Source: a virus. From it: a stretch of DNA of 41,941 bases. The notes under the pieces are model-generated. The model was not told the DNA's origin and searched no databases. It worked only from the letters and a program-made list of their open reading frames with translations. The stretch is taken from UHGV virus genome UHGV-1354005; one strand, given 5' to 3'. Position 1 is the first letter of the stretch, and each line of letters begins with the position of its first letter. The position numbers and the translations under genes were made by a program. Below are positions 14,065 to 41,941 of the stretch, piece after piece.

Positions 14065-14431
14065 TGTTTTTTTTGTTAAATATAAGTTTTCCTTTAATGC
14101 TAAAAGCCGTTGTATAGTCTCCTCTTTCCGTTTCCTCCAATTCTAGCCCAGCTCCTGCAAAAACTTCCCTTATTATCTCCCTTACCTTCTCTTTCTTTTC
14201 TTCCGATTCTCTATTCGAGTTTCCGAAAAAAAACAACTCTAACGTGTTAGCGTATTCCGTAATTGCGCCGTCTTCTACAAACTCCATAAAGATTTCTTCA
14301 AACCCTCCCACTCTTTCGTTTATCTCTCTTATTGCCTTTCGCTTCAACGGAAATACGTCTAACAACGGATATCTTTCTTCTATCTGCTCTTGTGTTCCTT
14401 TCATGTCTTTACTATATCTTTTTTCTCTCAT
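14051..14431 (-). CDS. hypothetical acidic protein; first gene of the leftward island operon
   Basis: 126 aa and Glu-rich. It is transcribed away from the 1.1-kb control region. Confidence 0.4.
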   Translation of the reverse strand: MREKRYSKDMKGTQEQIEERYPLLDVFPLKRKAIREINERVGGFEEIFMEFVEDGAITEYANTLELFFFGNSNRESEEKKEKVREIIREVFAGAGLELEETERGDYTTAFSIKGKLIFNKKNNEIQ

Positions 14432-14439
14432 TTGTCAAT

Positions 14440-15550
14440 AGCTTTTTATTATTTTTTTTCTCTCATCAACTTCTTTTTTTCTCCTATTCCCCCTCTCTTC
14501 CTTCATACCTTTTTGTCAACCTTTTTCTTCACTTCCTCCTGTCATAACTTTCCGGGGGGGGCTTTAGGGGGGGGGACGTTCCCTCTTCCTCCGTGTTTCT
14601 TCTCCCTCTTTCTCGTTGCGGGGGGTTGTAGGGGTAACGGCTAATCACGTCGAACGGGACTAACCAGCTTGCCCTCCCTCCTCCTAAATCCTCCTCCCTC
14701 CTAGCTGGCAAATGAGTTCATCATTGGATTTTTCGAAAAAAAGGCCATTTCCTGACATTTTGGAGTAAGGCGTTGATAAAGTGTGCGCTTAGGCAAGGCG
14801 AAAAATCTACATGCGAAATGTTGACAAATTTTCAATTTTGTGCATATCCGATTGCCGCGTTGTCAAGCTTGCCTCTAAAAAAGCGGGCAAGGGCGGCTAG
14901 CCTCAAGCATCAAGTTGCGGTTAGTGATCCGCTTGACAAGGGCGATTTTTGCACCGTTATCGGTAAAACGCAACAGTTTTTTTAGTGGAGCGTGCGCTTC
15001 TTGTGTGCAATCTTCGTAACTCATTGATACTCTATCATACTTCGCATAACACACATAATGCAAAGTCGGAAGCCATAGAGGTCAACCTTGAATAACGCAC
15101 TACAAGCCACCTAGCACGCGCCGCCTTTCCCGGATGATATGTGTATCGGCTCACCTCTCAAAAGGCCCGTACAAGCCAACCTCGCAAGCCGTTTTTCGGC
15201 ACAACCGTAAGAATTAGAATAATTATTGCAGTTTTGCCTAGTTTCTCGCATGTTTCGCCGCACGCACGCAGACCAGCATGAGGCAAGGACGACGGCCATG
15301 AGAGGGCGCAACTACCCCTAGGCGCTTGGTGTGTTGCCATGCCATACAGGGGGCGCCGGGGAAAAAGTCGCGGGTGTTTTGCGCTGGACAAAGAAGGTAT
15401 CACGCTGTGTAATAGGAAAAAAAAGAAAAAGAGATAGGAAAAAAGTAAAACGGCCTATAGGGAGAAAACGTGGTTTGTTAGAGAAAAAGAAAAAGGAGTA
15501 AAAAAAAGGTAAAAGGAAAAAATAGTATGTATAAGGAGAAAAAGAAGTTG
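14440..15550. promoter_or_regulatory. divergent control region (early-left and late-right promoters; possible origin or ncRNA)
   Basis: About 1.1 kb with no convincing ORF. It holds a CT-rich tract, G8/G9/G6/G4 runs and inverted repeats gttgtcaagcttg and gcttgacaag. It also includes ttgacaaattttcaattttgtg. Composition switches polarity across this region. Confidence 0.5.
14554..14575 (+). other. G-quadruplex-forming motif (G8-ctttag-G9)
   Basis: The sequence reads ggggggggctttaggggggggg, so four or more GGG tracts with short loops are available. G6 and G4 runs lie at 14620-14634. Confidence 0.5.
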
Positions 15551-18101: not shown

Positions 18102-19682
18102 ATGGAAGTAAGCGAGATAGCCAAGTTGTTGAAAGACCCGATGTGGAGGATATCGCATTTGTATGAGATAAAACTCACGGACGGGAACATCATACCATAC
18201 AAGCCGAGGAAGTTTCAGGAGGAGTTGCACCGGGCGTGTTACTGTGAGGGGAAGCGTCGTTTTTTGATACCAAAGAGTAGGCGTCAGGGGTGTTCTACGG
18301 CGATAGGTGTGATGATGGCAGACATGGCGGCTTTTGAGGAGGGGTGGAAACTGGCGTTGGTGGACAGGACGCTGGGGGACGCAAAGGAAAAGCTGACGGA
18401 CATTGTGAAGGTAGCCTTGGACAGTTTGAAGCGGAAATTGCCGGGGTTGTTTGAGATAAGCTATTTCCAGTCCCGCATCATAGTGAAGATGACAGGGAGG
18501 AGGGCCAGCGAGATAGTTGGCGGTAAATATTTCCGAGGCAGTGGGCTTGGTTTTGCCCACATATCAGAGCTTGGTACCATAGCGACGAGCGAACCGAAGC
18601 GAGCGGCAGAAATAGTAAACGGCACATTCCCGGCGGCCAAGGACGGCTTTATATTCGTGGAGACGACGGTACGAGGCGGGAAGCGAGGGGTATTCTACGA
18701 AAACGTGATGAATGCGTTGAGCGTGCCGGAGGAGGAGCGTGGGGATAAAGATTTCCATGTGGTATTTTTGCCGTGGTGGAGTGACGAGAACAACAAATCG
18801 AAGGGGGGAGAGGCGATAAATGCGGCCACAGAGAGTTATTTTGAGACGCTTAGGAGCAAGAGCGGGATTGTTGTAACCGAGGAGCAAAAGCGTTGGTGGC
18901 AACAGGCCAAGAGGCAACACGGGGTGTCGATGAATGAGGAGTACCCTTCGACCTTGGAAGAGGCTTTTGAGGTTCCGATGGAGGGTGCCATATTGGAGGC
19001 GGTGTTGGACAAGGCAGTACAGGAGGGCGCTTTTCGGAAGTTGGCCTATGACGCGACAAAGCCATGCTATTGCACATGGGACTTGGGCGCGCCGCTAAAC
19101 ACGATTAACCTTGTATTCCAGCTGGACGGCCCCTTCATCAACGTATTGGAGTTGGACAGCGGGTTGCATGCAAGCGAACGTGTGGCAGAGCGTGTAACAA
19201 GGCTCAAAAGCAAATATCCTACATTACAGGCAAACTTCCTTCCGCATGACGGAGGGTACATGACGGACACGGGGATGACACAGGCGCAGATGTGGCAGGA
19301 GGCAGGGTTGCCGGGCATACAGTTGTTACCGAAATCGAAAGACAAATGGATAGGCATCAATTACCTTTTGGGTATGTTTGACCTGTTCCGGTTTGACGTG
19401 GAGGGGACAGGCAGGGCGTATAGCTACTGGTTAAGCTACAGGTGCAAGCCGGAGGTAAGCGAGGGAGGCATATTCAAGAATGAGATTGTGCATGACAATG
19501 CGTCCCATTGGGCAGACCCGTTGAGGTATGTAGCGGAGGCGAAAATGAACAATTTGCTTGTGCAAGGTCCAACAACCCAAGACTATAAGGCAGGAATAAC
19601 ATGTACATTTGGGAAATATCATCGTGAGCGAAACATTGGACATAACTGGCGAGGACGGTTTGAGCGTACTTTCCGAATCTGA
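18102..19682 (+). CDS. terL: terminase large subunit
   Basis: 526 aa. The N-terminal ATPase region has PRKFQEEL and a KSRRQGCST P-loop-like segment. The C-terminal region looks like a nuclease with acidic residues (LPHDGGY, WADPLRY). The portal gene follows, as in the canonical order. Confidence 0.75.
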   Translation: MEVSEIAKLLKDPMWRISHLYEIKLTDGNIIPYKPRKFQEELHRACYCEGKRRFLIPKSRRQGCSTAIGVMMADMAAFEEGWKLALVDRTLGDAKEKLTDIVKVALDSLKRKLPGLFEISYFQSRIIVKMTGRRASEIVGGKYFRGSGLGFAHISELGTIATSEPKRAAEIVNGTFPAAKDGFIFVETTVRGGKRGVFYENVMNALSVPEEERGDKDFHVVFLPWWSDENNKSKGGEAINAATESYFETLRSKSGIVVTEEQKRWWQQAKRQHGVSMNEEYPSTLEEAFEVPMEGAILEAVLDKAVQEGAFRKLAYDATKPCYCTWDLGAPLNTINLVFQLDGPFINVLELDSGLHASERVAERVTRLKSKYPTLQANFLPHDGGYMTDTGMTQAQMWQEAGLPGIQLLPKSKDKWIGINYLLGMFDLFRFDVEGTGRAYSYWLSYRCKPEVSEGGIFKNEIVHDNASHWADPLRYVAEAKMNNLLVQGPTTQDYKAGITCTFGKYHRERNIGHNWRGRFERTFRI

Positions 19683-20352: not shown

Positions 20353-21978
20353 ATGTTGTACAACAACCAGAGTCCAAAGCAGAAGAGGGAGCAACTCTAT
20401 TCGTACAGACAGAGATATGTGTCTAACTGGCAACGAGTTGCGGAGTTTGTAGAGCCAGACAGGCGGTTTAACCTGAATGGAGCTGTACAGGAATCCACAC
20501 CTAATAATGAGGGATATATTGACACGACGCTTGAGCGTGCGTTGAGGCTGAACGCAACAGGCCAGCATGAGCTTGTAATGCCCAAGGCTAGTGAGTGGTT
20601 CACCTTTACGCCCTTGGCGAAAGCGGCAGACAGGGAGCTGGTGACAAGCACCATTGACGACGAGTATGCCGAGACTGCAAGGGTTGTGTCCATGTTCATG
20701 AGGAACAGCAACCTGCACACGGCAAGCGAGCTTTTCTTCTGGGACAGGGCGGCTTATGGCATTGGCGCTTTTTGGGCAGAGTGGGACACAAGGAAGCGAG
20801 GCTTTAGCTTTTATTCAATCCCCGTTGGGACATTCATGGTGGACAAAGACAAATTTGGCCGGATGAATATGTTCTGTTGGGACGACTGGATGCGAAACCA
20901 AGACATTGTAGCAACGTTCCCGGAAAAGAATTTGCCTCAAACGGTAAAGGATAAATACATGGCCAACTCCAACAGCCCGGACAACTACCTTGTGTTCCAT
21001 TTGTTGGAGCGAGTGGAGCGCACCGGGGACGAAGGGCTTATTGCCCGTGCGGACGGCAAGGAGTGGGTGCTTCGTTCCGTGTACGACGCAACAGGCGACG
21101 TATTGCTTGAGCAATTCTTCAAGAACTGTCCTGTCATTTGTTGCAACTGTTTTGACTTGCCCAACAGCCCGTATGGGTATGGGTTTGGGAAGGTTTCCTT
21201 GGCAGACCAGATTGAGCTGGTGAATTGCCTGAAAGCGTTGGCAGAGGCGGCCCAGCAGAAGATTTTCCCGCCGATGCTTGTACCCGAAGGCTTCCAAGGG
21301 AACATTGGCTATGGTGCTGGGGAGGTAACAACCTTTAACCCGCTGAACATTCAGGCAAGGCCGTCGCCCCTGTTCCAACAGGCTTCACAAACCTCTGACT
21401 GTCAATGGCAAATTGAGCGGTTCGAGCGTGTCATCAATGAGGCATGTGACGTTAATTTGTTTATGCCGCTGTTGCAGGTGAAGGACCCGCAATACATGAA
21501 GGCCACAGTAGCGCAGATGATTGAGTCTTATTCGGCACGTATCAGCTCTACGGCTTATACGAGGTTGATTGAGCAATTCCTGCAACCCTTGGTGGACTTT
21601 TGCTACAACACGCTGGTGCAACATGGTTATGTCCGTCCTTTGAGGGATTACCATATCCAGTTCTGCACGCCGTTCCAGATTCTTTTGGACAGGCATCAGC
21701 CGACCTTGTTTACGGAGTTCCTGCAAACGGTAGTCATTCCTCTTTCACAAATCGACCCGACCGTTCTGGACTCTGTGAATGCTGACTATATTTTCCGAAG
21801 GAGCATGCTTGATATTGGCCTGTCACCCAAGTACTCTAGGACGGAGGCGAAGGTGGAACAGATGAGGAGAGAACGCCAAGCGGCTCAAGACGAGGCAAAC
21901 CAGATGGCTAATGCCAAGACATTCTCGGAAGTGCAGAAGAATCTTGGAGCGGCCAGCAAAGACATGAATCTGATTTAA
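20353..21978 (+). CDS. portal protein (positional call)
   Basis: 541 aa, directly after terL and before the scaffold and capsid genes. Confidence 0.5.
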   Translation: MLYNNQSPKQKREQLYSYRQRYVSNWQRVAEFVEPDRRFNLNGAVQESTPNNEGYIDTTLERALRLNATGQHELVMPKASEWFTFTPLAKAADRELVTSTIDDEYAETARVVSMFMRNSNLHTASELFFWDRAAYGIGAFWAEWDTRKRGFSFYSIPVGTFMVDKDKFGRMNMFCWDDWMRNQDIVATFPEKNLPQTVKDKYMANSNSPDNYLVFHLLERVERTGDEGLIARADGKEWVLRSVYDATGDVLLEQFFKNCPVICCNCFDLPNSPYGYGFGKVSLADQIELVNCLKALAEAAQQKIFPPMLVPEGFQGNIGYGAGEVTTFNPLNIQARPSPLFQQASQTSDCQWQIERFERVINEACDVNLFMPLLQVKDPQYMKATVAQMIESYSARISSTAYTRLIEQFLQPLVDFCYNTLVQHGYVRPLRDYHIQFCTPFQILLDRHQPTLFTEFLQTVVIPLSQIDPTVLDSVNADYIFRRSMLDIGLSPKYSRTEAKVEQMRRERQAAQDEANQMANAKTFSEVQKNLGAASKDMNLI

Positions 21979-23603: not shown

Positions 23604-24596
23604 ATGGCAAATTACGGAAACTTCCAGACGCTTGCTGTAAACGAGTACACGCCCATGATTTATGCGGCTGTTCAGCAGATGCGCTCTAGAACGGAGCGTT
23701 TCATGAGGGTTTACGGCATGAATTCCCGGCAGCGCAGGTTCCAAATCATTGACCCTGTAAGCTCCACTCAAATCACCGACCTGTATGGTGCGACCAACCC
23801 GCAACAGGCCGAGTTCAGACAGCGGTGGCTTAAAACCAAAATCTTCAAGTCCACTCATGAGATTTCCCGCACGGAAATGCAACAGGCAGGGACTATTGAC
23901 TCTCCGCTTCCCCGCATTGTGGACGCAGAGCGCATGGAAATGCAACGTCGCCGTGACTTGGTGGCTGTTGAGGGCCTTATTGGTACTGCGTGGACTGGCG
24001 AGAATGGCGACATCCCCGTTGCCTTCAACGAAGCGGCCAACACGATTCCTGTTGGCTACGTGCAGAGCGGAACCTATACGGCATCCGGCCTGACCTTTGA
24101 CAAGATTGTACGAGCCAAGACTATCTTTGGCATGCGTAACGTGTTGGGGCAGGACGTGGAACGTCAGGATTTGGGTGGCCCTGAAATGGTAATCCTTTGT
24201 ACCCATGAAGAGCTTGCGGCTCTCTACGGCATCAAGGAATTCACGAACATCCTTTACTCCGACCAGCGTCCGATTGCCAGCGGCTACATTGACAACGTGC
24301 TTGGCGTGCGTTTCATTGCGCTGACTGCGGACATGCTTCCGTTCGGTTCCCGTCCGCTTGGTACTGCGGCCGACCCGACCGATGGTCTATCCACGGCGAA
24401 TGTGCGAACCCTCATTGCCTTCACGATGAACTCTGTTGCGTTTGGCGTGCTGGAAGAGCTGTTCGTTCGGATTGAGGAACTTCCGACCAACCAGTATGTA
24501 TGGCAGACGTACTCTGAAATCGCAATGGGTGCGACCCGAATCGAAGACAAGGGCGTGCTAAAGATTGATGTTTCTGGTTCAAGCGGTAATTTCTAA
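23604..24596 (+). CDS. major capsid protein (positional call)
   Basis: 330 aa. It follows the scaffold gene and a long leader that carries terminator and promoter signals. Confidence 0.5.
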   Translation: MANYGNFQTLAVNEYTPMIYAAVQQMRSRTERFMRVYGMNSRQRRFQIIDPVSSTQITDLYGATNPQQAEFRQRWLKTKIFKSTHEISRTEMQQAGTIDSPLPRIVDAERMEMQRRRDLVAVEGLIGTAWTGENGDIPVAFNEAANTIPVGYVQSGTYTASGLTFDKIVRAKTIFGMRNVLGQDVERQDLGGPEMVILCTHEELAALYGIKEFTNILYSDQRPIASGYIDNVLGVRFIALTADMLPFGSRPLGTAADPTDGLSTANVRTLIAFTMNSVAFGVLEELFVRIEELPTNQYVWQTYSEIAMGATRIEDKGVLKIDVSGSSGNF

Positions 24597-31034: not shown

Positions 31035-32993
31035 ATGGCGACCAACGATACTAGAGACATAAGACTGGGTGTCAGTAGTGCGAACAAGGAGGGGTTGTTG
31101 CCTTCTCCTTCAAACCGTTATTTGCGCTCCACTTATGATGCGGCCAGATATGTTCCTATTGGAAATGAGTTTGATAAAGAGAGCCGAGTAAAGGAGCTTG
31201 GCGACCTTGGCGAAGGACTCACAATGTGGTCGAAGGCGCAAGCGGAAGTCGAGACAACGAACGACAGTATTCAGTCACGGCGCATGCAAGCAGAGTACAT
31301 GGAAGCTTCCACACAGGTTTTCAATCAGCTTCAAAAAGACCCCAGCACGATGAACAATCCTGCGGTTTGGCTGGATGCCTATACGGAGGAGATGACATCA
31401 AGGGCGGCAGAGATTAACAACAAGTATGCCAAATCGTTTTATGTTGGGCGCAATCAGATGTTGTCCAATGAAAGGCTCAACCTGTTGCTGAAAGAGGAGA
31501 AGAACAAGGTGGGCCTGATGGCGGCAGACAGAATATCAAAGATGGCCGCAGACGAAACTAATGCGGCGTTCAAGATTGCTGTGGCCAACAGGGATTTCGG
31601 GTTGGCTAGGGAGATAAATAAAAGCCCCTACCTAACACCTGCGGAAAAGATGTTGAATGAGAATGGAATTGTTCAAGCCCAGACACAAGACATCATCCAG
31701 CAGGAAACATTGAGGAACCCTTGGGGTGTTCTGGAAGAGGTGAACAGGGATGGTGCTGTACAGCGTCGTGAATTGACCTATGAGCAACAGCAGTACGCAT
31801 TGAACCAAGCGCAGGGCCGGATAAGCATGATTCAAAAGCAATCGTATGACTCTCTCGTACAGAAGTTTTTGTTCAACCCGGAAGAGTTTGAGATGGATGT
31901 CGCCAAAAAGCTATTGGACACAAACCAGCTGACGACCCAGCAATATGTCAACCTCCTCAACATGAAGAAGACCATGAGCGCCAAGGTTGAGCCGACTCCA
32001 ATGCAGTTTGCGGCCATGTCTAATTGGGCAGTCAAGCTTTCAGAGGATTATCACAAAGAGTCGCCAGAGGGACAGGCCAACATCCTCTCCCAAGCTGAAC
32101 GGCTTCTTGAGCGGATGAATTTCAGCACCAGCGACAAGAACTCATTGCTCAAGCTTGTAACACAAAAGATTTCCCCGGAAACGTTCAATCAGGCTGACAA
32201 GTTGGTAGAGAAGTTTTGGGATAACGGCCAACTACCTCTGACCAAGACAGCGGATTACACCGGAACTCAAGGAGGAACTACTCCGATTTATTTGACGGAG
32301 GGAGAGTTTAATACCCAGTTCAAAGAGAGGAAGAACCAGTTTTTCTTAGACAAAAGCAGGACATACCTAGACCCGAAAACGGCAGAAGACAGGTATGCTG
32401 TGATGGAGTATGTGCCTAATGCGGAAAACATTCTAGTGCAAGACCGGGTAAAGAGCGAAGTCCGTTCTGCCTTGTCGGATAGGATAGCAGAATATCGGGC
32501 GCAGAATGGAGGACGAACCCCGAACACGGAAGAGCTTTATACGATGATTTACAACGCCAGAGCAGAAGTCTTTGGTAATCAAAACATTAAAGCTCTTAAT
32601 CCTATTATGGACAACCCTGTTTTCCCGTCAGGACGACAGGAGAATACTGATGAAAGGAAGGCAACTTTTATCCCCAGAGAAAACAAGAAGTTCTCTTTTA
32701 GGACCGCTTCGCCAGTAGTTGATATTCCAGAAGGGGATAAATACATTTGCCTCTCGCCGGACAATGCGTTTGTCACATCGGAAAGGAACCCTCTTCTTGT
32801 ACTCAAACAGGCAGGGCAATATCCGTTAGGCTACGTAACCTTCGACCAATCCTATCTTGAAAAACCTTCGGAAGACCTACAAGATGTTGTGGCAAGGAGG
32901 AATGCAAAAGCTATTGCTGAAAAGGCAGGGCTTGCGGCACAGAGCGAGCAGACGGTTTATTGTGCTTTAATTGCGTACTGGAACAGCTTATAA
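31035..32993 (+). CDS. structural/internal virion protein (hypothetical)
   Basis: 652 aa, Q/E/K-rich with coiled-coil character. Confidence 0.45.
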   Translation: MATNDTRDIRLGVSSANKEGLLPSPSNRYLRSTYDAARYVPIGNEFDKESRVKELGDLGEGLTMWSKAQAEVETTNDSIQSRRMQAEYMEASTQVFNQLQKDPSTMNNPAVWLDAYTEEMTSRAAEINNKYAKSFYVGRNQMLSNERLNLLLKEEKNKVGLMAADRISKMAADETNAAFKIAVANRDFGLAREINKSPYLTPAEKMLNENGIVQAQTQDIIQQETLRNPWGVLEEVNRDGAVQRRELTYEQQQYALNQAQGRISMIQKQSYDSLVQKFLFNPEEFEMDVAKKLLDTNQLTTQQYVNLLNMKKTMSAKVEPTPMQFAAMSNWAVKLSEDYHKESPEGQANILSQAERLLERMNFSTSDKNSLLKLVTQKISPETFNQADKLVEKFWDNGQLPLTKTADYTGTQGGTTPIYLTEGEFNTQFKERKNQFFLDKSRTYLDPKTAEDRYAVMEYVPNAENILVQDRVKSEVRSALSDRIAEYRAQNGGRTPNTEELYTMIYNARAEVFGNQNIKALNPIMDNPVFPSGRQENTDERKATFIPRENKKFSFRTASPVVDIPEGDKYICLSPDNAFVTSERNPLLVLKQAGQYPLGYVTFDQSYLEKPSEDLQDVVARRNAKAIAEKAGLAAQSEQTVYCALIAYWNSL

Positions 32994-35900
32994 AACATTT
33001 ATGCCTGAAACACTAGACCCATTAAACCTAAACCCTTCCTCAACTATTTCGGACGCAATAGGAGGTGAGGCTTTGGAGGAACAGGCTCAACAGCAAATGC
33101 AGGAGCAGGTTTCTAGGGAGGCTCAAGGCATTTCAAATGGTGTGCAGGAAGGAGCTTGGGCCGAAAAGGCATTGAGCAGTAAAAGGAAGCTTCGTGAGGA
33201 CTTGGATGAATACCTCAAACTCCAAGCCACAGCCACACCTGATGACCCCCCAGAGTTTTTGAATGCTCTTGCCGACAGGCGAAACCAGCTAATAAATAGT
33301 GGTATAGACCCGGACTATGAAAAGTATCGGGACAAGATTGACAGGATTCAGGGGAAAATATATGCCATAACCCAAAACATCAATCCCAAGACAGGGTTGT
33401 TTGGTGTTGTCCCCACCGAGGATGTAAAAGACAGTAGGCTTGGGACGCTCCTCACCGCAGAGCAAATAGGCTACTTTAACAGCCTACCTAAAAGCATGCA
33501 GGATGAATTCATCTTTGAAGGGATTGTTGAAACCTTCTTCCCGCAGGGAGGTATGGATAAGGTAACGGCATTGGGATTACTCAAGGAGCATTACCAAACC
33601 GACTCCATGCACGGAGTTGTCAGCAAATACGCTCAAGAGCTTCAAAGGAACAAGGATGAGGAGATAGCATACAATGAAGCCTCTACCAGATTTTTCGATT
33701 CCTTTATAGAAACAGGAGGCGATTACCAGAAAGCAATCGACAGCTTGGAAGGCAATCTAAACCTGTATGCGGAAAACATTTTCAACCAAGAACCTGCGCT
33801 TAAATACATTTACCAGCGTGCGTATAACTCCGTCTCATGGATTAAAGATGAATACATAGAAAGCGGAGAGCTGGATTGGGACAAGATGGCAGACAGGTTG
33901 TTGAAGCTTGGTGAAGGAGAGACGTTCTCTCTAGCCATTCAGATGCTTCCCTACATGTTGCCCAAAGACGACAGGACTTGGCTCACACAAGCCATAGACG
34001 ACACCGCCTCTGATGTCTCCCGCTTTGCTAGGCTCATGGTTGACGGAGGAGGCGATAGCGCCCAAGCAGAACGCCTTGCGTTGGCTATCCAGCAGGAATA
34101 TCGTCAGGGCCGAGACATGCCTACATCGTGGATAGGAAGAGCTTTTAAGGCGGCGACAGACCAAGTTCCGAAGGTGGCGGCAGTAACCGGAAGCTCTCTT
34201 TTGGCTTCACCGGGTGGGCCTGTAGCAATGGCCGCCACAGGAACAGCTGTCGGCTCAATGGTGTATGGTTCAACGGTAGGTCTTGAGGCATATAGGACGA
34301 ATTCTTCTAGGGCAGGAGCATTGACATATGGTGTTACTGTTGGGGCCTTGGAAGGTCTCCTTGAAAACGTAACTCTTGGCGTTGGTGCTTTGGCCTCCAA
34401 AGGTATTAAGGTGGCAGAGGCAGGTAGGAAAATGGCCTCTGTTGCCGGGAAAGTTCCCGCCACCGTAAGAGGTGCGGCGGCTGGTGCTTTGTCTGAATAT
34501 ACCCAAGAAGTCATTGCTGACCCAATTTATGTTGGATTGGAGAATGTAATGCGCTCTGCGGGGTTTGAGCTTACCCAGCAAAACACCCTTAAAAACTGGT
34601 GGGAAACATTGGACTTTACAGCCCCTGAACTCTTGGGGGCTACAGCCATTCTTGGCGGCTCCATTGGTGCTGTTGGGGGCTATCAAGCTAACCACCTCAT
34701 CAACCGAGTAGGAAGAAGCGCTTCGGCTCTTCAAGCTTATGGTGTACCCGAATCGGAAGCTGTGGCTATTGCCGAAATGCCAGACGGCAAGGAGCGCACA
34801 AACAGGCTTATATCGGCCCTTCGCAATAACCGGGTAAGCCCCGACGTGCAAATAACAAACCAGCAAGCGGGGATATTCCTGAACTTTTTAGCTAAGAATG
34901 CAGAGAGGTTTAAGGATGTTGAGCTGATGCCGGAGATATCCGACAACGGGGACGGAACCTTTAATATTGTTGAGAGAGACCCGGTAAGTGGAGCTGAAAA
35001 AGTAACCACAGTAACAGACGAAATCGCAGGGACGTTCATGTCTCAAGCGTTGCAGTCAAATCCGGGATTTATCAGGGCATTAAATATTTTCGCCCAAGAA
35101 GAGATAGAGTCAGGGTTGGGCAAGGAGACGAAGATAAAGAGCTATACTCCTGACGAACTCCGAGCAAAAATCCAATCCACAGAAGACAACAATGCAACTA
35201 TAGCACGACTTAGGGCTTTGGCTGTAATTAACCAAGACCCGGAATTGTTGCAGAGTTTTCGTGATGGGAAAGTAAGTATTGAAGATGTAGCAAATGAGCT
35301 GGAAATTGTATCTGCATATAGAGATGGCACGATTGCTGTTGCGAGGGGTGAAGCGAATCCTCTCAATATTCTGGAAGAAATAATTCACGCCCGTGCAATA
35401 TCCGACTTGGAGAGCGGCGTTATTTCTCGAAGCGTCATTGAAACACAGGTAAGGAATTACTTGGAGTTCTTGGGACGTAGTGCGGAAGAGATAGGGGATT
35501 TGAGCAATGACGTTGTGTTGCAGGAACATTTGGCGAACATGGGGAAGGCTTTGGCAACAACGCCGGAACTGTTTTCCGCAATGCCCGGCAATGTTCAAAC
35601 AATCCTTGAGTGGCAGAAGGACGCTATAGCGGAAGTTGGGAATGTCTTTGCGGAAGGCGCTCTGATAAAAGAGGCCATTGAGCAGGGCATTGTCTCTCCC
35701 GATTTTGTCAAGTGGTCTAAATCTTTGGCGACTATGGCCGAACGTCGTGACGGTCAGGATATGGCAGAGCTTGTCAATGGTGCGACCGGAGAAAGCATTT
35801 TGCCAATGGGCCAGAGCCTTCCTTCCGTGAGGAGGCGTGGGACTATTAATGTAACTCCTTCTGTAAGAACCATTAACGAAGCCATATCAAACATAGTCAA

Positions 35901-38900
35901 TGGCGCATCGGAAAGGTCTATAGGCCAGCTCCACAAATTGCAGAGGAGCATGATAAAGCTTTCGGAAAGGTTTTCTCAAGGGAAGCTGACCGAACGAGGA
36001 CAACAGAAAGCGTTACTGAATTCTGTTCTCTCTATCGCTAATGCAATGGCTTCCGGTAGCCGGAAGTTTATCTCCAACCAACTAGCCGAAAGGCTTGCGA
36101 ACCCCAAGAGCAACGAAGCGTTTAATGCGGACATGAAGACTGCATTGGATGCCACAGTAGCGGCCTTGAACGAAAGAGCGGAGGCGGCGAGCCGGAAGCA
36201 GTTGGAGCGCATTATTCAGGACGAGATAAACAGGAGGGTTGAGCAAGCGGACGCTAAAGCCAAGAAGGATTTCAACAGGGAAATGAAATTCCTCCGGGGT
36301 TTAATCTCCAAGGAAATAAGGAAAGACATCAAGGAGGAAAGAGCGGAGGCGGCGGCAGAGAAGAAGCTTGCCAGTAAGAGCATACAGAGCTTGCGAAGGC
36401 TTGCCGAGAATGCTTTTAAGGACACCAAGGGGCGCTCTCGTTCTTTGGATGCACAAGCCAGAGAGGAGACTATGGATGCCCTTGAGGTTATGGCTATGTC
36501 TCCTTCCGAAGTTGCAACCCAGCTTGAAGTCTTGGATAGCACCATAGACGAGCTTCAAAACCAGCCTGCCACAGAAGAACTTGCTCTGGAACTGGAAAAT
36601 CTGGAAAACCAAAAGAATCTCCTTGAGGTGTTTGGTAGTGCGTTGTATCGGGAGAAGATGCCTAACGGAAGGTATAAGTATGCTCTCAATGCACAGCAAC
36701 TTGCGGAAGCAGTTAAGACATTGAAGGAGCTACAGCGTGAAGGGCGACTCCGCAGGAAAAAGGTTAATGAACGTATTGAGCGCTTCTATAATGATTTTAA
36801 CGCTAAAATCAATGAGCGAGTAGGAGGAGAGAAGAATCGTGATGCCCTTAGAAAAGCCGTAATGGAAAGGGACCAACGGGGGACGGGCTTTTTGGATAGA
36901 ATCTTCACGCAATTCATGAGCCTTCAACAACTCCTCGAAGTGATGTCTTCCATGAAATCCTTTAAGGACATAGGGACATTCTTGCAGAACAACGTCCAAT
37001 TCGCAGAGCAACAGCGAGGGGTAGAAAAAGAAAAGGCTACGTCCAATGCGATTCGCATCATGCGTGGAATGATGGAGATTGCAGGGCAGAACTCTCCAAG
37101 ATATTTTGATGAGCTTTCTACAAAAACTATTCCCTTTATGGGGCATGAGCTAACCAAGTATGGCCTTGTAAAAGTCTATCAGACATTGAGAGAGAAGGAT
37201 GGCTTGGATGTGTTGAGAGAAAACCTTGGAGACAAGGGAATGGATTTCGGCAACTATCGTAAGTACCAACAGGAGTTGGAGGGCTTAAACAAGAGCCTTG
37301 ATGATGGTGCCATTACTTCCGAAGAGTTTGAATCCAAGTTGGAAACCATTGAAGAAGAATACCTTGCGAGGAAGGAAAAAGATATTGCCAAGCTGTTGGA
37401 ATTGCTGGGGCCGGATGGGCTTTACCTTGCTGACGAATTACAGAACCTGTATCGGGAAAAGGGCGAGAAGCTACGGGCGTTCATGGCAGAGAACTATGGC
37501 CAGACGGTTATCCTTGATGACTACTATACGCCCCGCAATATTGCCGCCTATAATACAATGCAAGAAGGGGATATGGATGCTTACAGTAAGGGACACGTCA
37601 CAAGGACGGGCTTGCCCTCTTACGCAAAGCACCGGAACACTCCCTCTTCGGCGGCGCTCTCTCTGGAAATAAACCCTCTTGGGGAATATCTTCGTTATAG
37701 CTCTATCATGGAGGGGTGGATGACAGCTTCGGAACTGGTCAACTTCAACAACCGGGTATGGGCTAATCCCACCACGAACGCCCAGTTGCAGAAATTATTA
37801 GGCCCAGCCAATTTCGAGGCGGCAAACAAAGCCCTGTATTACTTCATCAACGAGGGGCGTGTGTATGCCCAAAAGAGCGTGTTGGCAGAGGTAATGGGGA
37901 AAGTGTTCCAAGTATTGGCTAAGACAAGGATTGCTTTCTCCTTGGCTTCTCTGGTGCGCTCTGGGGCGGCTTTGTTCAACCCTATCGTTGGTAGCAACTT
38001 CTCCATGATGGAAATTATCAAAGGCGTGGCAGAGGTGACAAGCGGGAACTATAAAGGTTTTACCCTTGAAGAGCTTCGTGACTTGGAGGCAATGAAGGAA
38101 CGTAAGTACCGTGGATGGGAAGACCGTGTGCTTGCCGATAAGGCATTAAGCATTCCCCTGAAAAAACAAGCGCAATGGGGATATTGGCAGGAAGCGGGCA
38201 TGAGCGGCCTTATGGCTTTTGACTGGTGGAGCATATCTTTTGTGAACCAGCTGACCTCCCACATGCTTGCTAATCGCGGTTTGTCGCATGAACAGATAAG
38301 ATGGGAGCTTAATAAAAACATCTACCAGACGGCACAGCCTTTATCTACCTCCGCTAAGGCTATCCACTTGATAGGTGGAAGCTCATTTGAGCAAGCCCAG
38401 TTCCTTTTCTTGTCTGACGTGATGAACAAGTTCGGCCTAGTGATGATGCAAGGCAAAAAGGATGTTCCTTTCTGGGAGGCTTTTCAGGGAGCCTTTCGTG
38501 TTTATACTATTGCCGCTCTTGCTAATGGTCTCTTCAACGGCTTGGCTACAGGTTTATTTGGCGACAAAGACAAAGAGGATGACTTCATGAGCAACCTCTT
38601 ATTGACTGCGGCATTGAGTCCTATTGTCTCTGTTCCTATGTTCGGCGGGTTTGCAGAGTGGTGCGCTTCCCTTATTAGCGGTGGTAAGCAATTCAGTCTG
38701 GGACGAGCCGATATGGCTGATTTATCCAAATCAATTCAAGGCTTAGTCAGAAGTATTGTGAAGACGTATGAGACTGTATCGGAAAAATGGGACAAGGAAG
38801 GTGCTTTGACTACCAATGATTACATTGATATGGTTTCCTATGTAGGCAAAAATATTGGGAGTGTCGCATCGGCTACCACAATATTTGGTACTTCTGGGCA

Positions 38901-39165
38901 GAGTATGACCAAAGCTCTAGAGATGGTAGGTGCATTATCAAATGCCCTTTCACAAGCTAAGACGACCACACAGAAATTCCTTCCAGAGTCAGTAAATCCC
39001 CTCTACACCGAAAAAGAAGCTATGAAGGAGAGGGCTAGGCAGATAAGAAGGGAGAAGAAGAAGGCCAAGCAGGAAAACGGCGAAAGGTCAGCAACCTACA
39101 GAAAACTTTCACGGGAATTAAGGCAAATAAACAAACAGTTGAAGATAAGGGGCTGGGAAGACTAG
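32971..39165 (+). CDS. giant 2064-aa virion protein (tape-measure-like or ejection-protein-like)
   Basis: It has a Gly/Ala-rich hydrophobic segment (TGSSLLASPGGPVAMAATGTAVGSMVYGSTVG...), long coiled-coil stretches and a basic C-terminal tail. The true start is probably the ATG near 33001. Confidence 0.5.
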   Translation: MRTGTAYKTFMPETLDPLNLNPSSTISDAIGGEALEEQAQQQMQEQVSREAQGISNGVQEGAWAEKALSSKRKLREDLDEYLKLQATATPDDPPEFLNALADRRNQLINSGIDPDYEKYRDKIDRIQGKIYAITQNINPKTGLFGVVPTEDVKDSRLGTLLTAEQIGYFNSLPKSMQDEFIFEGIVETFFPQGGMDKVTALGLLKEHYQTDSMHGVVSKYAQELQRNKDEEIAYNEASTRFFDSFIETGGDYQKAIDSLEGNLNLYAENIFNQEPALKYIYQRAYNSVSWIKDEYIESGELDWDKMADRLLKLGEGETFSLAIQMLPYMLPKDDRTWLTQAIDDTASDVSRFARLMVDGGGDSAQAERLALAIQQEYRQGRDMPTSWIGRAFKAATDQVPKVAAVTGSSLLASPGGPVAMAATGTAVGSMVYGSTVGLEAYRTNSSRAGALTYGVTVGALEGLLENVTLGVGALASKGIKVAEAGRKMASVAGKVPATVRGAAAGALSEYTQEVIADPIYVGLENVMRSAGFELTQQNTLKNWWETLDFTAPELLGATAILGGSIGAVGGYQANHLINRVGRSASALQAYGVPESEAVAIAEMPDGKERTNRLISALRNNRVSPDVQITNQQAGIFLNFLAKNAERFKDVELMPEISDNGDGTFNIVERDPVSGAEKVTTVTDEIAGTFMSQALQSNPGFIRALNIFAQEEIESGLGKETKIKSYTPDELRAKIQSTEDNNATIARLRALAVINQDPELLQSFRDGKVSIEDVANELEIVSAYRDGTIAVARGEANPLNILEEIIHARAISDLESGVISRSVIETQVRNYLEFLGRSAEEIGDLSNDVVLQEHLANMGKALATTPELFSAMPGNVQTILEWQKDAIAEVGNVFAEGALIKEAIEQGIVSPDFVKWSKSLATMAERRDGQDMAELVNGATGESILPMGQSLPSVRRRGTINVTPSVRTINEAISNIVNGASERSIGQLHKLQRSMIKLSERFSQGKLTERGQQKALLNSVLSIANAMASGSRKFISNQLAERLANPKSNEAFNADMKTALDATVAALNERAEAASRKQLERIIQDEINRRVEQADAKAKKDFNREMKFLRGLISKEIRKDIKEERAEAAAEKKLASKSIQSLRRLAENAFKDTKGRSRSLDAQAREETMDALEVMAMSPSEVATQLEVLDSTIDELQNQPATEELALELENLENQKNLLEVFGSALYREKMPNGRYKYALNAQQLAEAVKTLKELQREGRLRRKKVNERIERFYNDFNAKINERVGGEKNRDALRKAVMERDQRGTGFLDRIFTQFMSLQQLLEVMSSMKSFKDIGTFLQNNVQFAEQQRGVEKEKATSNAIRIMRGMMEIAGQNSPRYFDELSTKTIPFMGHELTKYGLVKVYQTLREKDGLDVLRENLGDKGMDFGNYRKYQQELEGLNKSLDDGAITSEEFESKLETIEEEYLARKEKDIAKLLELLGPDGLYLADELQNLYREKGEKLRAFMAENYGQTVILDDYYTPRNIAAYNTMQEGDMDAYSKGHVTRTGLPSYAKHRNTPSSAALSLEINPLGEYLRYSSIMEGWMTASELVNFNNRVWANPTTNAQLQKLLGPANFEAANKALYYFINEGRVYAQKSVLAEVMGKVFQVLAKTRIAFSLASLVRSGAALFNPIVGSNFSMMEIIKGVAEVTSGNYKGFTLEELRDLEAMKERKYRGWEDRVLADKALSIPLKKQAQWGYWQEAGMSGLMAFDWWSISFVNQLTSHMLANRGLSHEQIRWELNKNIYQTAQPLSTSAKAIHLIGGSSFEQAQFLFLSDVMNKFGLVMMQGKKDVPFWEAFQGAFRVYTIAALANGLFNGLATGLFGDKDKEDDFMSNLLLTAALSPIVSVPMFGGFAEWCASLISGGKQFSLGRADMADLSKSIQGLVRSIVKTYETVSEKWDKEGALTTNDYIDMVSYVGKNIGSVASATTIFGTSGQSMTKALEMVGALSNALSQAKTTTQKFLPESVNPLYTEKEAMKERARQIRREKKKAKQENGERSATYRKLSRELRQINKQLKIRGWED

Positions 39166-39195
39166 TCCCCACCCTCAACCTAACCAATACTAACA

Positions 39196-40047
39196 ATGGC
39201 AACGAAAAAAAAGGTAAAAGCAGTAGAGCCGGAAGTGGTTTCCTCTGTTGAGCCAGAGGTGGCGGCAGTCCCCATGACAATGGCGGCGGCCACACCTCGC
39301 GCCAACGGACAGTCGACCAACGGTTTTGCTAAGGTAGAACAGGGGAAATCCTATGTTCTATCCGTCAATGCCCCTTCTGGTTCGGGAGAAGTCGAACTAT
39401 TGGCGGCAGATAGTGATACACAAAGCGAACCTGACATGTTTTCTCTTCTTTACACGAAAGTGGAGAACTCTATGCAGATTCCCTTTGTGGCTGTTTCTTC
39501 TTGGGTATATGTGCAAGCAGGTAATAGTAACATTAACTGGCTTGTAACACCGGCAAATTTTAGTCTCGCCGTTCCCGGTGTGTCGTCCGGTGGCGGCGAA
39601 AGCTTTGACCCGGAAGCGCCCCAAAAGATTTCAGGTGACTGGCAGTTTACAGGCGAATTAATTAGAACGGTAAAGGCATCCCCAGCGGCCAATGATGTCT
39701 TGAACAAGGCAATGGGGGATAACCTTTATATGACGCTTGATACCGAGCAAGAAGTTCAAGGGGCAAAAAATTTTGAAGGTAATATAAAAATACGAACAAT
39801 CCAGTCAGATATTACCGATAAAGGGCCTACTGTTAAACTGGTAATTTGGACATTCCTATGCAACAACGGGAATATGGTTATATACCAGTACACCACCACC
39901 TCTTTGGTTGGCTTACAAAGTGCTGACACAGGAGGCGGTTTCAATGTGGCTAAAAACGGCCAAGCCACCTGTGAAAACTCTCTTCTGGTAAGGGGGGGGT
40001 ACGACAATAAACTCTTTAAGTGCTACAGGGCCAGCGACTTTCGATAA
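39196..40047 (+). CDS. tail-fibre-like protein, N-terminal part (reading frame disrupted at a G8 tract)
   Basis: 283-aa ORF whose last 17 codons follow a G8 run at 39992-39999. The -1 frame continues as a tail-fibre-like sequence. Confidence 0.5.
   Translation: MATKKKVKAVEPEVVSSVEPEVAAVPMTMAAATPRANGQSTNGFAKVEQGKSYVLSVNAPSGSGEVELLAADSDTQSEPDMFSLLYTKVENSMQIPFVAVSSWVYVQAGNSNINWLVTPANFSLAVPGVSSGGGESFDPEAPQKISGDWQFTGELIRTVKASPAANDVLNKAMGDNLYMTLDTEQEVQGAKNFEGNIKIRTIQSDITDKGPTVKLVIWTFLCNNGNMVIYQYTTTSLVGLQSADTGGGFNVAKNGQATCENSLLVRGGYDNKLFKCYRASDFR
39992..39999 (+). repeat. G8 homopolymer inside coding sequence (frameshift or phase-variation site)
   Basis: Counted directly as aggggggggt. Confidence 0.9.
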
Positions 40048-40078
40048 TACTGTAACTGTTACAGCAGGAAACAAAATT

Positions 40079-40291
40079 TTGAGTTCTGTTATAGCACAGG
40101 ATGATTTGACTGAAACAACGGTTGCTCCTGTAGGAAGTAACGATGCAAGGTATATTCAATTCAAATCCATGACCAAGGCAGAATATAACGCTTTGGAAAC
40201 GAAGAGCAATTCAACCATTTACTTTTTAACCGACCAGAATATGTGGGCTATCGGCGACAAGGAGCTTGTCACGTCTGATATGCCCGCTTAG
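40079..40291 (+). CDS. C-terminal tail-fibre domain, reachable only by a -1 shift at G8 (no ATG; track start is TTG)
   Basis: The frame is open from the G8 tract. It reads GGTTINSLSATGPATFDNTVTVTAGNKILSS..., a typical tail-fibre repeat pattern. Confidence 0.45.
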   Translation: MSSVIAQDDLTETTVAPVGSNDARYIQFKSMTKAEYNALETKSNSTIYFLTDQNMWAIGDKELVTSDMPA

Positions 40292-40296
40292 TTGGT

Positions 40297-40307
40297 GGGG
40301 GGGGGGG
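40297..40307 (+). repeat. G11 homopolymer, intergenic, 5 nt after the TAG stop
   Basis: Counted directly as gttggt followed by G11 and then tga. Confidence 0.9.
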
Positions 40308-40395
40308 TGAATAACTCTCTCTCCACCAGTTACTTACAGAAACAAATGAAGATTTGGGCCAAGTGTCCATACCCAACAACGAAGAAGAAGAATCA

Positions 40396-40824
40396 ATGTA
40401 CATTAGAACTATTCCTTTAGTAGCGGAATCTGGTTATGCTACCAACGACGCTGTACTTCCGGCAGAAGCACCTTCTGGGGTTTATGAAGTTTTAATCCCT
40501 AATTTCGGCGTCCAAAGTACCTATACTATTGTAGCATACAACCAAGGCTCCGGCAATAATCGTCCAGACATTATTAAAACTTTGGAAGACTGTAATCAAC
40601 CTCTGATATATAACGGAGACTACTCTGATTTTTCAGGGTGGAGTTATGAAAACGAAACTGGCGGTTCGACTATAGCTATTCCAGTTGGAGCTAATGTTGT
40701 TCGTTTGAGTTGTTACTTTCAGCACGTTATTGGCGAAGCAACTTCCTTGATTACGGTATCTTGCAATAATGGCTTCACTCAAGGAAACACTATCGGTTCT
40801 ATTGTGGTTCGTCAATTAGCATAA
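40396..40824 (+). CDS. hypothetical protein (fibre-associated?)
   Basis: The frame is open from 40315. The first ATG is at 40396 (MYIRTIPLV...), while the track's TTG start lies at 40354. About 142 aa. Confidence 0.4.
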   Translation: MYIRTIPLVAESGYATNDAVLPAEAPSGVYEVLIPNFGVQSTYTIVAYNQGSGNNRPDIIKTLEDCNQPLIYNGDYSDFSGWSYENETGGSTIAIPVGANVVRLSCYFQHVIGEATSLITVSCNNGFTQGNTIGSIVVRQLA

Positions 40825-40829
40825 CTACT

Positions 40830-41207
40830 ATGATTTTAAGAGCAGTTTTTCAAGAAGTCGGAGAATACGATAAAGCCACTATTTCCCCTATGCAACTGGA
40901 TGATTGGAGATTGCTTTCACCGGAAGACCTCCCAGAACATCTTCAAGAGGTTTGGACTAAACTCAAGGACGAAATGGCTTCATTAAAAGAGGGATGGATT
41001 GTCAACGAGTTTGAAGTCTTCCCTTCTCTAGAGAAACCAGACAAGGAGATTGAGATAAAAGTCACGGCCAGAAACAAAATAAACAATCTTCCTCAACCTC
41101 ATGTTCCTATGAAAATTTTTACTTTTAACGAGATTCCTACTCTTAAAAGAGAAGATAAAGAGGTTATTGAGTTTTTGAGATGGTTTAAAGAAACAAAGCC
41201 AGAATAA
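40830..41207 (+). CDS. hypothetical protein
   Basis: 125 aa and acidic. It is the last rightward ORF before a terminator. Confidence 0.4.
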   Translation: MILRAVFQEVGEYDKATISPMQLDDWRLLSPEDLPEHLQEVWTKLKDEMASLKEGWIVNEFEVFPSLEKPDKEIEIKVTARNKINNLPQPHVPMKIFTFNEIPTLKREDKEVIEFLRWFKETKPE

Positions 41208-41290
41208 AGCTTGACCGATAGAGTCTATTAAGCTATCATCCACCTGTATTCATCAAACAGTGGATGCCATTGCGTTAATGTCACCATTCT

Positions 41291-41341
41291 CCGAGGGCGC
41301 AGGGTTTTTGCTCATGTTTTACCTGCGCCCTCGGTTTTTTT
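41291..41341 (+). terminator. rho-independent terminator
   Basis: ccgagggcgcagg pairs with cctgcgccctcgg in a 13-bp stem, followed by a T7 run. Confidence 0.55.
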
Positions 41342-41941
41342 GTGCCAGTTGAGGTGGGCCTAAAAAAATAACCCTTGTATGACACAATTATAAATCCCTT
41401 ATAATAAGGACATTGTAATAAATCTCCAAGCAATCCTCGCCTTTTTTATGTCAAACTTTAGGCTTGATTTTTTGAGGGGTGTGTCGTTAAAATCTTGTTC
41501 AAGGAACAGGGCGGTTAAGTTGATTGTTTTCCTTTGGCCGCTCCAAGGCTCAATCTCCCTCGTGGTTAGCAACAACCAAGTGTTTAGCAAATAACTTGGT
41601 TCTCTACAAGAAAAGAGTTCGGATATGGCAAGCATATCCTTCATGATTTTTCAAAAGTTTTGATTTACGCCTATCGGCTATGGAGCCAAACAAAGTTGTG
41701 GGCTTGGTTAGAGAAACAAAGGGATTAGAAAATAAATGGTTTTAAAACAGTTCTAATTTGGAACACGTTGGTTAGATAAAGTATGTAAGAATAAACCATT
41801 TAATATTTAATTATCAGTTTTATTCCTTCGTTCGACTAACAGGTTGCATAGAGCGGCTAACAAGAGAGCCAAGTTCGAAGGTGTTAGCGAAACGATAACA
41901 TAGACCACTTCGAAGTTATTAACTACCGTCTCCAACCACAA

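Follow-up and report, generated by a model that had tools for sequence, protein, structure and literature searches.

A G8 homopolymer splitting a tail-fibre gene of an uncultured phage from the human gut is probably a recurrent slipped-strand frameshift allele

In the 41,941-nucleotide virus genome UHGV-1354005 (hereafter the window, which means this whole stretch of DNA), a tail-fibre-like gene is interrupted by a run of eight G residues (G8). Comparison with related phages, most of which have seven G residues at this site (G7) and an intact gene, indicates that G8 is probably a real and recurrent OFF allele of the fibre gene, in which slipped-strand mispairing has added one G (+1G). An earlier note, which was made from the sequence of the window, had already claimed that the run splits a fibre-like gene. 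This was confirmed, as the 364-residue fused protein exists in relatives and has a tail tip domain (PF24243) downstream of the run. The elements of the gene on which the analysis is based are as follows.

39992..39999, + strand: the G8 homopolymer, read here as the +1 frameshift (OFF) allele; in-frame relatives have G7.
39196..40047, + strand: the fibre open reading frame (ORF) truncated by G8, 283 residues, frame 0, from ATG 39196 to the stop TAA 40045-40047.
39989..39991, + strand: a TAA which closes the downstream frame and adjoins the tract on its 5' side.
39998..40291, + strand: the C-terminal segment of the fibre, out of frame and open in the window; it has 97 codons, from GGT 39998, and a TAG.
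40160..40231, + strand: PF24243 (Phage_tail_C), FKSMTKAEYNALETKSNSTIYFLT, which lies wholly downstream of the G run and is lost from the G8 product.

Across the G run the 283-residue ORF reads CENSLLVRGG and continues with YDNKLFKCYRASDFR up to the TAA at 40045-40047, giving the C-terminal end ...LLVRGGYDNKLFKCYRASDFR*. The stop lies 15 codons past the two Gly codons of the tract, in agreement with the claim of the earlier note that the annotated frame ends soon after the run. When one G was deleted in silico, a 364-residue ORF was obtained, which reads GG-TTINSLSATGPATFDNTVTVTAGNK... to the TAG at 40289-40291 and thereby adds the 97 codons and stop of the downstream segment, again as claimed. 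Because the TAA at 39989-39991 stands directly 5' of the run, the downstream frame can be joined only at the run, and this point of the earlier note also holds. Its term "-1 frame" does not fit translation, since a ribosomal route into the downstream frame on the G8 mRNA would be +1 (or -2) and not -1. The predicted junction peptide of such a frame-shifted G8 product is LLVRGGTTINSL (…LLVRGG-TTINSL…).

By itself, a lone coding G8 is unremarkable. In the window GGGGGGGG has 8 overlapping matches where 1.47 would be expected, and this number is also attained in 2 of 100 shuffles; the weight comes from the comparative data and from the rarity of G runs elsewhere in the genes. The coding sequence of this genome otherwise avoids such runs: GGG is the first codon in just 3 of the 67 Gly-Gly dipeptides, although it accounts for 25% of Gly codons (P = 9e-6). 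Given the strong avoidance elsewhere, the G8 run in the fibre gene is an exception.

The G run divides a single gene, and the downstream segment is a genuine C-terminus of a fibre. The fused protein has one Pfam match, PF24243 ("Phage tail tip domain"), which scores 30.0 bits (cut-off 23.7) and covers residues 322-345. A large protein database holds 486 relatives. They have both ends in common, ~150 residues at the N-terminus and ~45 at the C-terminus, and differ in the central modules. In an alignment of relatives, the invariant C-terminal columns extend from I320 to A364 and include those of PF24243. Such a conserved anchor with swapped middle parts is the usual tail-fibre layout, and the gene is located at the end of the virion module, after tail and internal-virion-like genes. 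The label "receptor-binding tip", which the earlier note gave to this part, is an inference. On the other hand, the TFDNTVTVTAGN motif, which the earlier note had regarded as typical of tail fibres, could not be confirmed as such. A profile search of PDB gave one marginal match (9d93, "tail collar fibers gp4", E = 0.048), a PDB sequence search with the C-terminal segment alone returned noise only, and a PHROGs scan gave no match for the fibre or the two genes downstream of it. The AlphaFold2 model built from a 24-sequence alignment was unusable (mean predicted local distance difference test score, pLDDT, of 31).

Full-length 364-residue proteins with 97-98% identity are common in gut metagenomes and form clusters of 259 and 28 member sequences. 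At the DNA level, G7 with the same 40-nucleotide flanks is present in six independent genomes (L001, which equals L034, and L002, L030, L031, L032 and L033). G7 is retained across genomes that are up to ~4% divergent, a range which gives too little power on the conservation of the tract. Judged roughly by how large the clusters are and how many contigs were found, perhaps a few per cent of assemblies are out of frame.

G8 is also present in many independent data sets. In the window's own strain (loci L013-L015 and L038), contigs of ~42 kb from two ENA assemblies and one JGI record encode the exact 283-residue product, and the Logan assembly of run ERR688589 also has G8. At least nine further runs have the same tract length (ERR1857062, ERR11777979, ERR10017651, ERR10017649, ERZ28625354, SRR36242254, ERR4334016, SRR36245284 and ERR4564109). 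The same out-of-frame tail ends proteins P0031, P0122, P0124 and P0026 of other strains, whose DNA has G8; P0123 is the window's own sequence, called from a downstream GTG start. A less biased census was based on the 70-residue "orphan" ORF (40079-40291), which gene callers emit wherever the fibre is broken. This ORF was found on 14 contigs, ten of which were listed, from ten samples, and eight of the ten listed have G8. Also listed were L044, which has AAA followed by G7 and is thus another +1 state, on a Lys variant, and L042, which has G7 together with a 1-nucleotide deletion directly 3' of the run. No G6, G9 or G10 was seen at the coding tract among the genomes compared. For annotation, the lesson is that the 283-residue and 70-residue "hypothetical proteins" are two pieces of one fibre gene.

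Several comparisons indicate that G8 has arisen more than once. The comparison with related phages which the earlier note had proposed showed that G7 relatives encode the long form directly and that at least seven haplotypes carry G8 (haplotype table of 39600-40291), including L040 with its divergent recombinant middle block. Three different immediate right-hand flanks accompany G8, and over ~1 kb the G8 genomes L018 and L039 are separated from L001, which is G7, by no more than one single-nucleotide polymorphism (SNP) and the extra G. In a neighbour-joining tree of the 2.25 kb around the site, at least four G7-to-G8 changes are counted by parsimony. The 294 nucleotides of the downstream segment in the window, L015 and L018 are identical to those of the G7 genomes L001, L032 and L033, implying that the events are recent and, in principle, reversible. 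Two apparent indels at 38879 and 41129 in this comparison were rejected as artefacts of fixed-length segment extraction.

The same comparisons bear on the possibility that a single old G8 pseudogene allele was spread by recombination and that no recurrent slippage took place, which we consider rather unlikely. The gene is clearly mosaic in these phages, the tract is found as G8 but never as G6 or G9, and some G8 lineages are decaying, all of which would agree with one old allele. However, recombination cannot easily explain the haplotypes, the flanks, the near-identical pairs and the tree all together, and the identity of the downstream segment to that of G7 genomes points to recent events. 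In addition, two other frameshift variants are present at the same spot (L042 and L044), and the neighbouring G tract differs in length between SNP-identical genomes (see below).

If G8 is a real, inherited state of the gene, selection on the fibre should be relaxed in the genomes that carry it, and the data point to such a relaxation. All out-of-frame genomes except L044 were read through the 97 downstream codons, and these are open in each of them. The downstream frame is without a stop in all six G8 lineages tested, and the ten further out-of-frame contigs listed have exactly the same 70-residue downstream ORF. Two G8 genomes have a second lesion in the fibre gene. That of L037 is an amber codon, TAG for TGG, in place of the invariant Trp149 (window 39640-39642); that of L039, near 39393, is a complex +1 indel. 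A second inactivating fibre lesion was found in none of the five G7 genomes checked. Private changes in the 97 out-of-frame codons are 8 nonsynonymous and 0 synonymous in G8 lineages versus 5 and 5 in G7 lineages (Fisher P = 0.036). Both the second lesions and the substitution pattern indicate relaxed selection once the gene is off, which is expected only if G8 is real and inherited. The lesions of L037 and L039 also suggest that the fibre is dispensable in some settings.

These data leave a sequencing or assembly error at the homopolymer, with a true G7 and an intact fibre, as a very improbable explanation. Homopolymers are the classic site of indel errors, and assemblies do disagree at G runs, as the tract located after the fibre gene is G9 or G11 for what is apparently the same strain. 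However, G8 at the coding tract was obtained from three pipelines for the window's strain and from the further runs described above, which belong to different studies. Neither the additional nonsense and frameshift lesions of L037 and L039 nor the excess of nonsynonymous private changes downstream is explained by consensus error. Besides, fourteen A8 or T8 runs are located inside ORFs of the window, and all but two of these ORFs go on for more than 100 nucleotides past the run. Contig names are in the style of MEGAHIT and SPAdes, which are short-read assemblers, and in short-read data the consensus of a 7- or 8-mer is normally reliable.

Programmed +1 ribosomal frameshifting or transcriptional slippage, with G8 as the designed state that yields short and long fibre isoforms, is scarcely credible. 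In its favour, tRNA-Gly could re-pair in the +1 frame of a G run without a mismatch, the tract is the one place at which the open downstream frame can be entered, and low-level spontaneous +1 slippage may occur on the G8 message. However, the out-of-frame state is the minority and most close relatives encode the long form directly with G7, the RNA of 39960-40030 folds no more stably than shuffled sequences do (z = -0.38) and offers no stimulatory element, inspection by eye revealed neither an A-site stop codon nor an evidently slow-decoding A-site codon, and G8 genomes gain upstream lesions and downstream nonsynonymous changes that would be unexpected if the long isoform were needed. Among the three explanations which the earlier note had put forward, slipped-strand length variation is therefore favoured by the G7/G8 polymorphism, the many haplotypes and the second lesions, whereas consensus error and programmed frameshifting are disfavoured.

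Some observations weigh against reading G8 as a recurrent slipped-strand allele or limit how far that reading can be taken. At the G run only +1 states are seen, and a freely hypermutable tract might vary both ways. Some of the G8 genomes were found via a search with the truncated product, which is a biased sampling, and recombination among co-circulating strains could inflate the count of origins. Sister fibre variants have RGA, KGG, KGH or KGD at the tract codons, and since their run is shorter or interrupted, they give no sign of selection for the repeat. As the out-of-frame genomes are a minority and some are decaying, a deleterious or neutral hotspot fits as well as an adaptive switch. 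The evidence consists of cross-sample metagenome consensus sequences. A return to G7 would restore the gene where the downstream frame is intact, but none of the changes on the tree can be given the direction OFF to ON, and the second lesions in two of the OFF genomes are irreversible. The reading of G8 as a real and recurrent OFF allele claims neither adaptive value nor reversibility, and both an adaptive switch and a merely tolerated hotspot would be compatible with it.

A likely course of events is that slipped-strand mispairing during replication would turn G7 into G8. Family scans of the window's proteins found no phage DNA polymerase, only an exonuclease and a RuvC-like resolvase, and host polymerases are therefore probably responsible. 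The added G stops translation 15 codons after the tract, and the last 97 residues, including the invariant tip, are lost; the truncated fibre is presumably non-functional. The site would thus behave like a contingency locus, at which mutation switches a conditionally dispensable fibre ON and OFF. Features of such loci were found here: a tract of at least 7 bases inside an ORF, a frame-toggling polymorphism between near-identical genomes, and homoplasy.

The closest precedent is provided by Campylobacter phages of the genus Fletchervirus, for which hypermutable G7-11 tracts in receptor-binding-protein genes have been described (Sørensen et al. 2021, Cell Rep 35:109214, as cited in bioRxiv 10.1101/2025.10.21.683753, PMC12823448). 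In both cases a G tract within the gene toggles the frame and varies among near-identical phage genomes. Fletchervirus, however, has several such tracts, whereas a single coding tract is found here, in an uncultured ~42-kb gut phage known from metagenome consensus alone. In phages T2 and T4, homopolymers of at least 6 bases within the ORFs of agt and rIIA undergo reversible frameshifts by polymerase slippage, as established by reversion assays and by frequencies at read level (Gomez, Barrick & Waters 2025, bioRxiv 10.1101/2025.10.21.683753). According to the same study, tail-fibre genes have an under-representation of these repeats, and polyG tracts are also listed for BPP-1 and PB1-like phages. 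The scarcity of repeats in tail-fibre genes parallels the avoidance of coding G runs in the present genome. Unlike T2 and T4, which encode their own polymerase, the present phage apparently does not.

A similar process is known for bacterial contingency loci, in which slipped-strand mispairing at an in-frame homopolymer switches a surface-interaction protein ON or OFF (PMC10877375, PMC8437040). The polyG/polyC loci of this kind are surface genes of Campylobacter, Neisseria and Haemophilus, whereas the tract described here is part of a viral genome and has sister alleles in which it is interrupted. In phage lambda PaPa, as Hendrix and Duda are said to have reported in 1992, a 1-bp change splits the side tail fibre gene stf into two ORFs. 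Both the lambda case and the present one consist of a single-base frameshift in a dispensable accessory fibre gene which is intact in relatives, and lambda remains viable. The lambda PaPa change was a one-off mutation of a laboratory lineage, whereas the same lesion recurs here in many natural samples at a homopolymer hotspot.

The mechanism is thus already known, and what is new is its occurrence in an uncultured human-gut lineage, the natural population data and the accompanying variable G tracts. If the allele is real and reversible, it would mean that a polyG tract switches an adsorption protein of phages ON and OFF in wild populations of the human gut, and it would extend the mechanism known from Campylobacter phages and from laboratory work on T-even phages to an abundant uncultured gut lineage. 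In that case, the frequency of the OFF state would be measurable across existing public metagenomes, and G7 versus G8 would be a simple read-level marker of phage-host dynamics within individuals.

Only four G runs in the window reach a length of 8 or more; each of them is located on the + strand, and the C runs do not exceed 6. The three G tracts besides the coding G8 are all intergenic and vary in length among relatives.

40297..40307, + strand: a G11 tract, 6 nucleotides past the fibre stop, which pairs as the 5' arm with a CU-rich partner in an RNA hairpin predicted at ~40289-40333.
14554-14561 and 14567-14575, + strand: paired G8 and G9 tracts, 5 nucleotides apart, intergenic, between the divergent early (- strand) and late (+ strand) blocks.

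The post-fibre tract is G8, G9, G10, G11, G13 or T-interrupted in relatives. It is G11 in the window and G9 in L015/L038, with zero SNPs over 5.7 kb. The predicted hairpin has a free energy of -26.5 kcal/mol (z = -2.3), and in more distant relatives with a second sequence context the tract is again part of a predicted hairpin (z = -3.0). This structure may be a 3' stability or terminator-like element with a slippage-tolerant G arm. In genomes L004-L012, which have this second context, inspection by eye placed the post-fibre G tract between a C/T-rich stretch and TTTTTTATAAT, the latter ~7 nucleotides 5' of the next ATG; the tract itself is ~25 nucleotides upstream of the gene that follows the fibre, and its length could affect a promoter-like or terminator-like element there. 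A scan of 38900-41941 for consensus promoters and terminators found nothing at either the coding or the post-fibre G tract.

The paired tracts between the early and late blocks are conserved in position in the distant relatives L022 and L024-L028, with lengths of 7-12. A regulatory element, a G-quadruplex and an origin are possibilities for this pair. A "leaderless promoter" noted by eye upstream of the early gene at 14431 was discarded, as its supposed -10 box falls inside an ORF.

The fast length change of the intergenic G tracts supports the view that the coding tract is a hotspot as well. A more speculative and, in our opinion, doubtful idea is that the lineage maintains its same-strand poly-G tracts (the early/late pair, the post-fibre hairpin arm and the fibre tract) as a hypermutable system. 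If this were true, gut populations would continually flip the accessory fibre ON and OFF and perhaps tune the expression of neighbouring genes, as a form of bet-hedging against variable host surfaces. Human metagenomes would then give a direct view of a contingency-locus system in a phage that is neither a Campylobacter phage nor a laboratory coliphage.

A second homopolymer in the fibre gene, close to its 5' end, also varies in length.

39205..39212, + strand: an A8 run, codons 4-6 of the ATG-started fibre ORF, whose length differs in relatives.
39235, + strand: GTG, a possible alternative fibre start giving a "VVSS/MVSS" N-terminus.

The run is A7 in L016, L019, L031 and L032, and L043 has a 1-nucleotide deletion after it; either change closes the ATG-started frame (MATKKR*). 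Two genomes in which this frame is closed are G7, implying that GTG 39235 is probably a usable start and that the first 13 codons are optional. A7 was rejected as the cause of every "MVSS" start among database proteins, since some gene callers pick the GTG despite A8.

With 100% identity, contig L013 passes from 41941 directly into position 1, and the window is thus a complete phage genome that is either terminally redundant or circularly permuted. Related contigs have lengths of 40-42 kb and come from human-gut metagenomes. The portal is ~23% identical to that of HTVC010P/T7-like podoviruses, and portal and terminase are 23-31% identical to their counterparts in cultured phages. In GenBank phages, neither the fibre nor the late region had a match at the DNA or protein level. 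The genome thus appears to belong to a podovirus-like, uncultured human-gut phage of ~42 kb which is far from any cultured phage. No relative of the fibre was found in GTDB genomes, hence no prophage or host clue, and Rfam and tRNA scans of the window detected nothing. The main genes of the late module and the neighbours of the fibre gene are listed below.

18102-19682, + strand: large terminase, late module.
20353-21978, + strand: portal/adaptor, late module.
23604-24596, + strand: major head protein, late module.
Late module, + strand: a 1430-residue tail protein, an internal-virion-protein-like gene.
32971-39165: a 2064-residue ORF directly upstream of the fibre, without PHROG or Pfam match.
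40396..40824, + strand: the gene next downstream of the fibre, 142 residues from ATG 40396, in an ORF open from TTG 40354, without family match.

By its position, the 2064-residue ORF is presumably an ejection or internal virion protein. On the other side of the fibre, a different type of rearrangement was noticed in proteins P0055 and P0109, in which the fibre either continues in frame into the downstream gene's homologue (…VTSD-NIMYTHFAY…) or has lost a long internal stretch up to that gene. The junction corresponds to window ~40280-40400, and these forms may be either true deletion variants or assembly chimeras.

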